Shown one piece after another: positions 54,603 through 56,667 of a stretch of 64,000 nt of DNA (within the stretch, counting starts at the first letter, position 1; each line of letters opens with the position of its first letter). Location: the NCBI RefSeq assembly GCF_029227855.1, contig NZ_CP074357.1; one strand, 5' to 3'. The stretch comes from Escherichia coli (GTDB taxonomy: Bacteria; Pseudomonadota; Gammaproteobacteria; Enterobacterales; Enterobacteriaceae). The notes below the pieces were generated by a model that saw only the letters and a list, made by a program, of their open reading frames with translations, did not search any database and was not told the origin of the DNA. The translations under genes and the position numbers were made by a program.

Positions 54603-54934
54603 TCCTACCATTGCATCCGGAAATTAAACGGGCAGGAACTGCACTGTATGTTCCGACCAAGCAGCTGCCCGTTACCCTTTTCTTTAGTGTAAAAAGACTG
54701 TCTCCGACAACCGGAAGTGACTCATGTCAAATAAATTATAAATCAATGATTTATGCAGGCAGGGTGTTTGGCTGATCAGGGCAGAGTGATATAATGACGC
54801 TGGTGCTGGAGGCTTTTGCCCCAGCCAGCGGTAACACTGTTTGACTGTGGTAAAAGCAGAAAGCCCCGAGTAATTTTTCAATTAACCTGTACTGCACCCA
54901 TTTTGTTGGACGATGAAATGGAATAGCCCCTGAT

Positions 54935-55456
54935 ATGTCAAAGCCAAAATACCCTTTTGAAAAGCGCCTTGAAGTCGTGAATCACTACTTCACTACTGAT
55001 GATGGTTACAGGATCATCTCGGCACGTTTTGGTGTCCCCCGAACCCAGGTCAGGACATGGGTTGCCCTCTATGAAAAACATGGAGAAAAAGGTTTAATTC
55101 CCAAACCTAAAGGTGTTAGTGCTGATCCTGAGTTGCGTATTAAGGTCGTGAAAGCGGTGATCGAGCAGCACATGTCCCTTAATCAGGCTGCTGCTCACTT
55201 TATGCTTGCTGGTAGTGGTTCTGTAGCCAGGTGGCTGAAGGTTTATGAAGAGCGCGGAGAAGCTGGTTTACGCGCGCTCAAGATTGGCACCAAAAGAAAC
55301 ATTGCAATATCAGTTGATCCAGAAAAAGCGGCATCAGCATTGGAGCTGTCAAAAGACCGACGCATTGAGGATCTTGAAAGGCAAGTTCGATTTCTTGAAA
55401 CGCGGCTTGTGTATCTAAAAAAGCTGAAAGCCTTAGCTCATCCCACGAAAAAGTGA
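54935..55456 (+). CDS. IS150 transposase OrfA
   Basis: 173 aa; matches recalled IS150 InsJ (MSKPKYPFEKRLEVVNHYF...). Confidence 0.9.
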   Translation: MSKPKYPFEKRLEVVNHYFTTDDGYRIISARFGVPRTQVRTWVALYEKHGEKGLIPKPKGVSADPELRIKVVKAVIEQHMSLNQAAAHFMLAGSGSVARWLKVYEERGEAGLRALKIGTKRNIAISVDPEKAASALELSKDRRIEDLERQVRFLETRLVYLKKLKALAHPTKK

Positions 55457-56304
55457 AAGTACTCAACGAGCTAAGGCAGTTTTATCCTCTTGATGAGCTT
55501 CTCAGGGCTGCGGAGATACCGCGCAGTACGTTTTATTACCATCTAAAGGCTCTCAGCAAGCCTGACAAGTATGCGGACGTTAAAAAGCGTATTGGTGAGA
55601 TTTATCATGAGAATAGAGGCCGATACGGATACCGTAGGGTAACGCTGTCTCTTCATCGAGAAGGGAAACAGATTAACCATAAAGCTGTTCAGCGCCTGAT
55701 GGGAATCCTCTCACTGAAGGCAGCGATTAAGGTCAAGCGATACCGCTCTTACAGAGGAGAGGTAGGGCAAACCGCCCCCAATGTTCTCCAAAGAGATTTC
55801 AAGGCTACGCGGCCAAACGAGAAGTGGGTTACCGATGTTACTGAATTTGCAGTCAATGGGCGCAAGCTGTATTTGTCTCCAGTAATAGATCTCTTCAACA
55901 ACGAAGTTATTTCTTACAGCCTTTCGGAAAGACCAGTGATGAACATGGTCGAGAATATGCTCGATCAGGCATTCAAAAAGCTTAATCCTCACGAGCATCC
56001 TGTTCTGCACTCTGACCAGGGATGGCAGTATCGTATGAGAAGATATCAAAATATCCTTAAAGAACATGGTATTAAACAAAGCATGTCCAGAAAAGGCAAT
56101 TGTCTGGATAATGCTGTGGTGGAGTGTTTCTTTGGAACCTTAAAGTCGGAGTGTTTTTATCTTGATGAGTTCAGTAATATAAGCGAGCTGAAGGATGCTG
56201 TTACGGAATATATTGAATACTACAACAGCAGAAGAATTAGCCTGAAATTAAAAGGTCTGACTCCAATTGAATATCGGAATCAGACCTATATGCCTCGTGT
56301 TTAA
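55453..56304 (+). CDS. IS150 transposase OrfB (DDE)
   Basis: 283 aa; DDE integrase core. Confidence 0.9.
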
Positions 56305-56402
56305 CTGTCCAACTTTCTGGGGTCAGTACAACCCGAGGCCCCTGTATGCTAGTCACACACAGCGTAGCCTCTTGCCTGCTTAAATGCAAGGAGAAGAAGG
56401 CC

Positions 56403-56561
56403 ATGAAAATGCCGAACCAACCCATTGTTTTGTGCATATTAATAGTTTGTTTAACGCTGTTGATATTCACCTGGCTCACACGAAACTCGCTTTGCGAGTT
56501 GCGGATGAAAGACGGAACAAGGGAGGTATTTGCTATCCTGGCCTACGAATCCGGTAAGTAG
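56403..56561 (+). CDS. hok: Hok/Gef-family type I toxin
   Basis: 52 aa [52 protein letters not shown]; colinear with recalled R1 Hok; RBS AAGGAG. Confidence 0.88.
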
Positions 56562-56568
56562 CTGACAA

Positions 56569-56592
56569 AGAGGGGGGCAACCCCCCTCTTTT
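56569..56592 (+). terminator. Rho-independent terminator after hok
   Basis: AGAGGGGGGCAACCCCCCTCT followed by TTTT. Confidence 0.75.
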
Positions 56593-56631
56593 CAGGGTGT
56601 GGATTAGTATGCCATCGGCACCTTTTGAAAG

Positions 56632-56667
56632 GGTTCCTCTAAAGCGGAGGAACCCTTTTTTCTTTTA
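56632..56667 (+). terminator. Second strong hairpin/T-run terminator
   Basis: GGGTTCCTC-TAAAGC-GGAGGAACCC followed by TTTTTTCTTTT. Confidence 0.7.

Follow-up and report, generated by a model that had tools for sequence, protein, structure and literature searches.

A hok/sok toxin locus with its control region split by IS150 on an IncHI2 resistance plasmid

hok/sok loci and the insertion sequences they attract

The closest described systems are the hok/sok (parB) locus of plasmid R1 and an identical locus that lies by psiB on IncF plasmids. These share their order of elements with the window, by which we mean the whole 64,000-nucleotide stretch of E. coli DNA that was analysed: the hok promoter, tac, ucb (the anti-SD), the Sok target together with sok, the mok Shine-Dalgarno (S-D) sequence and ATG, the hok S-D sequence, hok, a 3′ stem-loop, fbi and a terminator (tac, ucb and fbi are named after PMC9841398). 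Unlike the R1 locus, the window copy is interrupted by an IS150. The two also differ in that mok is in frame with hok in the window, as in hokC, but in another frame in R1, and in that the window leader is ~25 nt shorter than that of R1 in the Sok stem region.

IS150 has been described in related chromosomal loci. In both K-12 hokA/sokA::IS150 and sokE::IS150 (XL1-Blue, natural isolates), the element sits inside the mok/sok region and the hok ORF is intact. In sokE::IS150 the element has entered at exactly the homologous base and faces the same way as in the window (PMC11551753), whereas the K-12 hokA element occupies another position, 32 bp upstream of the ATG, faces the opposite way and shows no evident target-site duplication (TSD). 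mokA and sokA are annotated as pseudogenes on either side of the hokA insertion, which bears out the K-12 precedent for IS inactivation that an earlier note on this DNA had invoked. Both loci are chromosomal, whereas the window locus lies on a conjugative resistance plasmid. The disruption of sok genes by IS150 is already published for K-12 sokA and sokE, and the new point is that the hotspot is nucleotide-precise and specific in orientation. A second IS type, IS186/IS421 of the IS4 family, recurs at a fixed place outside the reading frame, just downstream of hokC and hokE, where its site is the 3′ GC-rich stem-loop region and the insertion affects the fbi/terminator end. The hok loci, which are rich in hairpins, serve as traps for IS elements.

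Within the IS3 family, IS1397 and ISKpn1 target hairpins, inserting into REP/PU loops, and IS911 inserts next to sequences resembling inverted repeats (IRs). All three parallel the present case in that insertion is nearly confined to one site and one orientation, at a conserved sequence able to form a hairpin. Unlike the REP targets of IS1397 and ISKpn1, however, the target in the window is the regulatory RNA hairpin of a toxin-antitoxin locus. Unlike the IS911 case, our own comparison found no IR-like sequence at the target: IRL and IRR match the sequence right of the insertion at ~6–7 of 25 positions, which is the level of chance, and targeting in the style of IS911 is not supported.

Anatomy of the split locus

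The interrupting element is a complete IS150; the features of the locus are collected in Table 1. Its length of about 1.44 kb and its imperfect terminal inverted repeats of the form TG...CA (TGTACTGCACCC... at 54888, ...GGGGTCAGTACA at 56330) are those of the IS150 group, as are two overlapping reading frames, orfA (54935–55456) and orfB (55453–56304, in the −1 frame), with the A6G slippery site AAAAAAG at 55417–55423 and a DDE transposase encoded by orfB (348 bits against NCBIfam NF033516, IS3 family transposase). A programmed frameshift is annotated by RefSeq in identical copies. The element is 100% identical to copies on ~250-kb E. coli plasmids and 98.8% identical to IS150 of K-12, and the window holds no further copy besides 54888–56330. 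The 3-bp duplication is ACC/ACC, against a single ACC at the 100%-identical empty site. An intact hok follows, exactly 72 nt (56331–56402) separating the last base of IS150 from its ATG. The earlier note, which had described a complete 1443-bp IS150 with an ACC duplication ending at 56330 and hok starting at 56403, was correct.

Table 1. Features of the interrupted hok/sok locus, in window coordinates
Feature	Position	Strand	Basis
Native hok promoter: −35 TTGGCT, 16-nt spacer, TG-extended −10 TATAAT	54768..54795	+	promoter scan, 10/12 matches; aligns with R1
hok mRNA leader, first 86 nt: tac 54802–54811, ucb/anti-SD GCCCCG 54863–54868	54802..54887	+	Rfam RF01794 model positions 1 to ~84
sok 3′ part, 35 nt: stem-loop and U-tail terminator; 3′ end approximate	54853..54887	−	alignment with RefSeq sokB, sokC, sokE and R1; fold of reconstructed Sok
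Target-site duplication ACC, left copy	54885..54887		read directly
IS150 (IS3 family), complete, 1443 bp	54888..56330	+	sequence, ORFs, identity and profile matches
Inward-facing terminator-like hairpin, 15 bp and T-rich tail, in IS150 right end	56253..56287	−	terminator scan; fold of predicted chimeric RNA
GCCTCG, last codons of orfB; perfect complement of mok S-D box CGAGGC	56292..56297	+	pairing predicted by folding of read-out transcripts, as a surrogate anti-SD
Target-site duplication ACC, right copy	56331..56333		read directly
sok 5′ part, ~21 nt: single-stranded tail that recognises mok S-D and start codon by complementarity	56334..56354	−	homology with R1 Sok and annotated sokB, sokC, sokE
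mok Shine-Dalgarno GAGG	56335..56338	+	alignment with R1
mok-equivalent frame, 71 codons, ATG 56346, in frame with hok	56346..56561	+	ORF list
sok promoter: −35 TTGCAT 56389–56384, 17-nt spacer, −10 TACGCT 56366–56361	56361..56389	−	position-for-position homology with R1
hok toxin gene, intact, 52 aa; S-D AAGGAG at 56388–56393	56403..56561	+	ORF, profile match, R1 identity
GC-rich stem-loop, hok 3′ UTR	56568..56592	+	MFE fold; homologous position in R1
fbi (fold-back inhibitory element), complementary to tac 54802–54811	56613..56622	+	MFE fold of reconstructed mRNA
Intrinsic terminator of hok mRNA: 14-bp stem (hairpin 56627–56659) and T-run	56627..56666	+	terminator scan and fold

An 855-bp sequence lacking IS150 and one ACC was matched over its full length, at 100% identity, by the IncHI2 plasmids NZ_CP022165.1 and CP070398.1. 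We conclude that this is a genuine insertion of IS150 into a formerly continuous locus. As judged by alignment, the empty-site IncHI2 plasmids carry a canonical hok/sok module, since all named elements align with R1 hok/sok. The Rfam sok model (RF01794) scores 81.1 bits on the empty-site allele (gathering score 59), whereas in the window it falls into two halves, of 46.7 bits (54801–54887) and 34.4 bits (56331–56405), both below 59. Likewise, a contiguous antisense sok, with its promoter, ~60-nt RNA, 5′ tail, stem-loop and terminator, overlapping the region where mok translation starts, is present in the empty-site allele and absent from the window. In the fold of the reconstructed 419-nt mRNA, nt 1–10 (tac) pair with nt 366–375 (fbi) and the mok S-D sequence pairs with ucb, C54867 being among the bases paired to it. 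The tac/fbi pairing differs from that of R1 by compensatory change (GGCGCUU/AAGCGCC here, GGUGCUG/CGGCACC in R1). Neither tac/fbi nor ucb/mok S-D pairing (54863–54868 with 56334–56339) is found on a single transcript in the window, where 1443 bp of IS150 lie between the partners.

The hok promoter, now directed into the left end of IS150, has been displaced 1.44 kb to the left together with the 86-nt leader and 35 nt of sok, and nothing has been deleted. sok is bisected into 56354–56334, which has the promoter, and 54887–54853, which has none. The promoter scan and coordinates thus uphold the earlier note in placing the insertion within the mok/sok control region and in uncoupling hok from its native promoter, but not in supposing that promoter and sok had been removed. 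By alignment, the sok promoter, ~21 nt of Sok and the mok S-D and ATG survive to the right of IS150, and tac, ucb and the sok terminator are cut off to its left; an intact sok and leader lying entirely downstream of 56330, which the note had named as evidence against disruption, were not found. The hok +1 was placed at about 54802, the start of the match to the Rfam sok/hok-leader model, and the sok +1 was placed from promoter spacing.

On the right, the Hok ORF matches NCBIfam NF007279 (Hok family toxin) over residues 1–52 of 52 (122.8 bits, cut-off 73), as expected of a family of ~50-aa proteins with one transmembrane helix and a conserved C-terminal region, and is 69% identical to R1 Hok. 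As in other hok/sok loci, an overlapping mok frame with its own S-D sequence lies upstream; mokC and hokC of K-12 have a common stop coordinate, and hence the same in-frame arrangement as the window. In R1, experiments have defined the GAGG that contains G105/A106 as the mok S-D sequence (PMC9841398), and IS150 has entered one base 5′ of the corresponding box, CGAGGC. The sok promoter, the R1 counterpart of which is TTGCGC-17-TATCCT, scores below the threshold of the consensus promoter scan. Two strong terminators had been noted earlier after hok. That at 56627–56659, with its T-run, stands, whereas the stem-loop at 56568–56592 belongs to the conserved 3′ UTR structure that forms the 3′ end of processed, translatable hok mRNA (PMC9841398).

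Predicted consequences for toxin expression

IS150 has integrated inside sok with a 3-bp duplication, on the 3′ arm of the hairpin that pairs ucb with the mok S-D sequence. The hok promoter, tac and ucb now read into IS150; mok and hok retain the signals for translation but have lost their own promoter; and the sok promoter retains only the first ~21 nt of Sok. From that promoter we predict a ~100-nt chimeric sok′-IS150 RNA ending at the inward-facing IS150 terminator. In transcripts reading out of IS150, the mok S-D sequence is predicted to be sequestered by the element's own GCCUCG, which lies 33–38 nt inside IRR. Consistent with this, C56296 paired with G56335 in all six of the read-out transcripts folded (6/6), and the S-D bases had ~0 unpaired probability. 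GCCTCG is conserved in ISKpn8, as well as in a second IS150-like right end that adjoins hok in other genera; it was not found in non-enterobacterial relatives. On this model hok would be essentially silent, and loss of post-segregational killing, in which a stable toxin mRNA and an unstable antitoxin RNA lead to the death of plasmid-free segregants, is the most likely outcome suggested by the anatomy and the thermodynamic folds. The plasmid would depend on other stability functions. The window holds no second hok, sok or IS150 that could complement in trans. The IncHI2 plasmid p13C1065T-1, which is 99.98% identical to window positions 32349–50000, has a RelE/ParE toxin gene at positions falling inside the window, and IncHI2 stability has been attributed to parAB and hipAB (PMC6306219). 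Tolerance of the insertion is suggested by PLSDB, in which an IS150-type element occupies the site in an estimated ~900 plasmids (Escherichia, Salmonella, Enterobacter, Klebsiella and Raoultella).

Because the hok ORF, the mok S-D sequence and ATG, the sok promoter and the entire 3′ UTR have survived, and the scan predicts no + strand terminator from orfB to mok, hok may be expressed at a low level by read-through. The same features could be read as a rewired but active module, in which read-through from the hok promoter or an IS150 promoter makes a mok/hok mRNA, the chimeric sok′-IS150 RNA serves as antitoxin, and killing or addiction persists in altered form. The predicted chimera would suit this role, having a free 16-nt 5′ tail, a Sok-like stem with the IS-derived CGAGGC and then a strong hairpin terminator. 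We nevertheless consider an active module quite improbable: tac and ucb, needed for the closed-to-open switch, are 1.44 kb off or on another transcript, read-out RNAs are predicted to have the whole mok S-D sequence paired, and transcription of IS3-family transposase genes is normally weak. Sok does act via its single-stranded 5′ leader, going by the title of Thisted et al. 1994 (cited in PMC6306219). Chromosomal sokE::IS150, an insertion at the homologous site, differs measurably in phenotype from sokE+ and undergoes precise reversion (PMC11551753), so that such insertions are not necessarily neutral nulls; the comparable loci of K-12 are, however, considered inactive (PMC11551753 and its references). 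The earlier note had alternatively proposed an outward promoter from IS150. mok and hok do lie directly downstream of the right end of IS150. IS3-family right ends can supply a −35 element. The consensus scan, however, detected no sigma-70-like site on the + strand at 56100–56402, and we rejected such a promoter as the main route to hok. Constitutive hok without Sok should moreover be toxic, yet hundreds of plasmids carry the arrangement, and we regard an outward promoter as highly improbable. With no + strand terminator between the orfB stop and hok, only read-through from inside IS150 is possible for hok.

A shared IS150 site and its likely cause

Aligned insertions indicate an IS150 hotspot, precise to the nucleotide and specific in orientation, that paralogous hok/sok loci have in common. 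The pattern is a 3-bp TSD directly 5′ of (C/T)G(A/G)GGC, with IRR toward hok, and it was found in IncHI2 hok, IncF R1-type hok and chromosomal hokB, hokC and hokE. The window conforms to it ([ACC]<IS150>[ACC]CGAGGC, 72 nt to the ATG). The measured distance to the hok ATG is 71–73 nt in IncHI2, IncF, hokC and hokE, and in hokB the homologous break point lies about 71 nt upstream by BLAST coordinates. TSDs differ by locus: ACC in IncHI2, CCA in IncF, AAC in hokB, ACC in hokC and CCC in hokE. Given the same nucleotide and orientation in at least four other hok/sok loci, the insertion appears to be a recurrent site-specific knock-out rather than a one-off. Both the window type and the K-12 type of IS150 occur at the IncF site, and in another IncHI2 lineage the related element ISKpn8 (94.5% identical to the window element, with flanks 96–97% identical) occupies the same site with the same TSD. 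Across ~5400 complete E. coli genomes, interrupted leaders number up to 458 for hokE, 710 for hokB and 301 for hokC; these counts, like those for plasmids, were estimated by sampling rows evenly, and clonal genomes and plasmids are among them.

New IS150 insertions at the corresponding base of hokC, as mapped here from the published coordinate, arose in three experimental-evolution lines, and one experimental hokC insertion lay 17 nt from the hotspot base (PMC5419217). Only the hokC coordinate was used from that study, as its hokE and mokB insertion coordinates fall outside those loci in NC_012967.1. In Kluyvera, Lelliottia and Enterobacteriaceae bacterium 89, IS150-like right ends adjoin the same box. 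When IS150 right ends were searched in one genome per species, the matches listed were mostly relatives in Streptococcus, Alistipes and Clostridia; among them were six usable Enterobacterales sites, of which four were at the hotspot, one was hokA-like and one was unrelated, a result that is suggestive and not a census. The second IS150-like right end (Kluyvera, Lelliottia, Buttiauxella) had no IS150-like transposase within 2.6 kb and no IRL, and is probably a truncated remnant. In Kluyvera, arsRBC lies upstream of it.

The likeliest cause of the hotspot is that the IS150-group transposase prefers this target site or structure, rather than selection by itself. Non-enterobacterial elements of the group have a T-run at +9 to +24 in 64 of 107 right flanks, against a background of 12%, and several of their insertions lie in or beside hairpins; this bias points to an intrinsic preference. 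Right-flank statistics were used because empty targets could be reconstructed for only eight complete copies of these relatives, too few for statistics. A competing reading is survivorship: IS150 lands anywhere, and only this base and orientation neutralises hok without unleashing the toxin. By the logic of post-segregational killing, loss of sok alone should kill the host of an active locus, and IS150 in the hotspot orientation brings both an anti-SD and a terminator; published accounts have read hok/sok hotspots as adaptive inactivation (bioRxiv 10.1101/527788; PMC5419217). However, insertions into the hok ORF, the hok promoter or the tac/ucb leader, which would also inactivate safely, are not the ones observed. 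Copies of hokC and hokE with an IS186/IS421 just downstream, which are considered inactive, have been hit at this same base, and the strong target bias of the non-enterobacterial elements also counts against selection. We therefore consider selection alone an unlikely, if credible, explanation.

A single ancient insertion, dispersed by homologous recombination or inheritance so that the events are not independent, has even less to commend it and is very improbable. The identical IncHI2 plasmids, which number in the hundreds, clearly descend clonally from a single event, and within IncHI2 the site and TSD shared by IS150 and ISKpn8, in closely similar flanks, would fit; but the five loci are paralogues with different flanks and different TSDs, two IS150 sequence types occupy the IncF site, new insertions arose during laboratory evolution (PMC5419217) and empty sites persist at 100% identity in the same backbones. 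More speculatively, and in our view rather doubtfully, IS150-type elements may have adapted to insert at the mok-SD hairpin as a safe site of their own, with a transposase that recognises the hairpin or box. The perfect anti-SD would silence mok/hok translation in one orientation only, the inward-facing terminator would cap the truncated sok transcript to give a stable Sok-like RNA and avoid host suicide, and the constitutive hok promoter would feed the transposase gene; if so, precise excision could allow toxins of plasmid addiction or persistence to be switched reversibly. Returning to transposase preference, we put the probability of the joint reading, namely that the locus is inactivated and that it marks an IS150 hotspot of which this preference rather than selection alone is the likeliest cause, at roughly 0.72.

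IncHI2 plasmids rank among the major vehicles for mcr-1, ESBL and carbapenemase genes, and by rough estimate this hok locus is split in about half or more of the sequenced IncHI2-type plasmids that possess it, several hundred records. The split loci are still annotated as ‘Hok family toxin’, and inventories of addiction systems therefore overcount functional modules. Roughly one fifth of the chromosomal copies of IS150 in E. coli, and most plasmid copies, sit at one hok/sok base. A vague hotspot thus becomes a defined target for studying site choice by IS3-family transposases, and the defined site also bears on IS insertion and excision as an on/off switch of type I toxins in plasmid maintenance and persistence.

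The IS150 insertion and its plasmid setting

Direct reading of 54400-57200 placed the ends of IS150 at 54888 (TGTACTGCACCC...) and 56330 (...GGGGTCAGTACA), with ACC on both flanks. The element is 1443 bp long, shares 100% identity with annotated IS150 on ~250-kb E. coli plasmids and 98.8% with the K-12 copy, and its OrfB scores 348 bits against the NCBIfam IS3 transposase model. We rebuilt the pre-insertion sequence by deleting the IS and one ACC copy; the resulting 855 bp has a full-length, 100% match in two IncHI2 plasmids, NZ_CP022165.1 and CP070398.1. We therefore conclude that this IS150 is a true simple insertion into a once-continuous locus. 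The complete element with an ACC target-site duplication (TSD) described upstream of hok in the earlier note is confirmed by both the reading and the empty-site match. No second copy of IS150, hok or sok lies within the window.

The backbone is IncHI2: 32349-50000 is 99.98% identical to p13C1065T-1, which carries repHI2, IncHI transfer genes and, at positions inside the window's span, a RelE/ParE toxin gene. Plasmids of this type carry further stability genes, and the literature names parAB and hipAB for IncHI2 (PMC6306219). Window 1-32348 is rearranged relative to p13C1065T-1, with blocks of 98-100% identity in differing order or offsets and one ~1-kb stretch matching at only 88-96%; repeated Ig-like-domain genes or an annotated IS3-family element may be the cause. 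Directly upstream of the hok promoter, a 201-aa ORF (53997-54602, plus strand; hypothetical protein WP_000137793.1), with hydrophobic stretches and an acidic DDDD motif, is kept in both IncHI2 lineages. Some 2 kb before the IS, a 93-aa hypothetical protein (2001-2282 in locus extract L001, 171-452 in L002) bears the PLSDB/RGI label 'Brucella suis mprF, defensin resistance, identity 100%'. Given to a 282-nt ORF of an enterobacterial plasmid, this label has the look of a database artefact.

The split hok/sok locus and its predicted expression

The hok product aligns over its whole length with the Hok-family model NF007279 (122.8 bits; cut-off 73) and is 69% identical to Hok of plasmid R1. The RefSeq/PGAP Hok is a 39-aa protein from an internal start codon (WP_223165953.1; window 56442-56561, L001 3497-3616, L002 3113-3232), unlike the 52-aa ORF, of which the model covers residues 1-52. 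In IS150-split loci the toxin is still annotated, without a pseudogene or disruption flag.

The Rfam 'sok' model RF01794 (gathering score 59) describes the hok-sense strand, from +1 of the leader to the hok AUG. An empty-site plasmid reaches 81.1 bits; the window match is broken into two parts, both below threshold, with positions 1 to ~84 at 54801-54887 and ~85-157 at 56331-56405. Alignment with R1 hok/sok, whose reference sequence has 100% matches in thousands of IncF plasmids, and with RefSeq-annotated K-12 sokB, sokC and sokE mapped surviving elements on both sides of the IS.

Features of the IS150-split hok/sok locus (window coordinates)
Feature	Position	Strand	Place relative to IS150	Basis or remark
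hok promoter TTGGCT-16-TGnTATAAT	54768-54795		left	promoter scan; +1 at about 54802
tac	54802-54811		left	
anti-SD/ucb GCCCCG	54863-54868		left	
sok 3' 35 nt (stem-loop and U-tail)		minus	left	
orfA	54935-55456		within	
orfB	55453-56304		within	overlaps orfA around A6G site
inward-facing 15-bp hairpin and T-tail	56287-56253	minus	within	terminator scan
mok SD GAGG	56335-56338		right	homologous to R1 mok SD
mok ATG	56346		right	in frame with hok
sok first ~21 nt	56354-56334	minus	right	R1 homology
sok promoter TTGCAT-17-TACGCT	56389-56361	minus	right	R1 homology
hok SD			right	
hok ORF	56403-56561		right	52 aa
3' stem-loop	56568-56592		right	
fbi	56613-56622		right	
terminator	56627-56666		right	

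IS150 interrupts sok within the 3' arm of the ucb:SD hairpin, at a point one base 5' to CGAGGC. The earlier note took the mok/sok control region to be probably disrupted, with probable removal of the native promoter and sok; this reading is partly supported. The region has been split rather than removed, and hok keeps the sok promoter together with the Sok 5' tail and the start of mok. The reading frame shared by mok and hok is as in K-12 mokC/hokC, and the R1 mok SD has been defined experimentally as GAGG, including G105/A106 (PMC9841398). In the reconstructed 419-nt mRNA, nt 1-10 are predicted to pair with nt 366-375 (tac/fbi) and the mok SD with ucb; relative to R1, tac/fbi shows a compensatory change from GGCGCUU/AAGCGCC to GGUGCUG/CGGCACC. 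We conclude that the ancestral hok/sok module was complete and canonical.

In the split locus, mok and hok are without their own promoter, and the hok promoter would transcribe 86 nt of leader and then IS150. An outward IS150 promoter driving hok had been suggested, but the promoter scan gave no consensus sigma-70 site reading out of the element. Since the scan also gave no plus-strand terminator between the orfB stop and mok, read-through is the only remaining route to mok and hok. In all six folded read-out transcripts, the mok SD is predicted to be fully paired with GCCUCG in the last orfB codons (56292-56297). The intact sok promoter would yield an RNA running from the native 5' tail through the right inverted repeat (IRR) to the inward-facing hairpin, a predicted sok'-IS150 chimera of ~100 nt that keeps a free 16-nt 5' end in its fold.

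We consider it likely (probability about 0.7) that the split locus is an inactivated addiction module, with post-segregational killing most probably lost. Residual or rewired activity may persist, since the hok-side signals are intact and sokE::IS150 has a published phenotype and precise reversion (PMC11551753). The split arrangement is found in several hundred sequenced plasmids from five genera.

Recurrence at one base

Junction searches brought unexpected full-length matches elsewhere. An Enterobacter IncHI2 lineage, whose flanks share 96-97% identity with the window, has ISKpn8 (94.5% identity with the window's IS150) at the identical base, again with an ACC duplication. One member, NZ_CP022533.1 (extract L005, 1118-2560 and 2620-4050), has hok cut off directly after its ATG (…GGCCAT|tgttaac…) and, ~75 nt further downstream, an annotated transposase gene of the ISNCY family; this locus has taken two successive IS hits. 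R1-type hok/sok beside psiB on IncF plasmids reads ...TTAACCA[CCA]<IS150>[CCA]CGAGGCATCC; the IS150 copies there are of two sequence types, which share 99.86% identity with the window's IS150 and 100% with that of K-12, respectively. On chromosomes, we found [CCC]<IS150>[CCC]TGGGGC at hokE (strain W60), [ACC]<IS150>[ACC]CGAGGC at hokC (DETEC-E223) and [AAC]<IS150>[AAC]CGAGGC at hokB (EC5), each with the IRR towards hok and 71-73 nt between the insertion and the hok start codon.

An uninterrupted leader is absent from at most 458 (hokE), 710 (hokB) and 301 (hokC) of ~5400 complete E. coli genomes, and evenly sampled rows suggest that most breaks lie at the hotspot base. The IS150 insertion at REL606 position 16,972, reported in three experimental-evolution lines (PMC5419217), maps to the homologous base of hokC; in a fourth line, IS150 inserted 17 nt away (PMC5419217). 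The matches listed, from one genome per species, include six IS150-like right ends in Enterobacterales. Four of these (Kluyvera, Lelliottia and two loci of Enterobacteriaceae bacterium 89) adjoin the same box in front of a Hok ORF, and a fifth lies against a hokA-like site. These cases cannot be traced to one inherited insertion: the TSDs and IS variants differ, some events arose de novo, and empty sites exist at 100% identity. The insertions at paralogous loci are therefore independent events.

Site choice and relation to known cases

Earlier work proposed selection for hok/sok inactivation (bioRxiv 10.1101/527788; PMC5419217). Selection alone would not require one base and one orientation, and the same base is also struck in hokC and hokE copies already bearing IS186/IS421 just downstream. 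Among the matches listed, 64 of 107 distinct non-enterobacterial IS150-group flanks have a T-run at +9 to +24 beyond the right end, versus 12% background, and several reconstructed targets of these relatives are hairpins or terminators. On these grounds we think it more likely that the transposase itself prefers the mok-SD hairpin or box. The hok/sok target has no resemblance to the IS150 inverted repeats. GCCTCG occurs at equal distance inside the IRR, just outside an inward-facing terminator, in IS150, ISKpn8 and a second IS150-like right end beside hok in other genera; it is absent from relatives in other phyla. This shared arrangement keeps a more adaptive reading of site choice open beside the favoured transposase preference.

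That second right end, ~45-130 nt with a hairpin terminator, GCCTCG and a 26-nt IRR, abuts hok leaders in six extracts (L090, Kluyvera ascorbata; L074, L073, L104, L080, L047). Within 2.6 kb there is no IS150-like transposase, and a search for a left end found none. In Kluyvera, arsR-arsB-arsC stands immediately before this right end. An IS-mediated deletion may have left it behind, or it may be where a larger element ends. The 21-nt right-end sequence CAACTTTYTGGGGTCAGTACA is exact in IS150-group elements of Streptococcus, Alistipes, Leptotrichia and Clostridia (L015-L134), and the Alistipes insertions lie within a repeated palindromic sequence (…GGGGCTGACTAAGTTACTTTTTAGTC…), which, with the T-run enrichment, suggests terminator- or REP-like targets.

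The published IS150 copy in sokA of K-12 also lies inside a sok gene, but it points the other way and stands 32 bp from hokA. In MG1655 this copy (L003, 3720633-3722075) is without matching 3-bp repeats, with GTA on one side and AAC on the other, and a Buttiauxella IS150-like end occupies the equivalent position (TAC|TCG); the hokA-type position may be a second, minor hotspot or a rearrangement product. K-12, REL606 and natural isolates carry IS186/IS421 at a constant position immediately 3' of hokC and hokE (L012 608-1001, L014 1-232, L135 2102-3214, L137 3873-4026). Some genomes carry it together with IS150 at the mok-SD site, so both ends of these loci are IS traps.

IS150 inside sokE is known from XL1-Blue and >400 isolates (PMC11551753), and hok/sok genes have been described as hotspots for mobile elements (bioRxiv 10.1101/527788). 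In the openly searchable literature we found neither the IncHI2 nor the IncF R1-type case, nor the rule that IS150 strikes five paralogous loci at the homologous base and always in one orientation. This hotspot rule goes modestly beyond what is published and can be tested directly.
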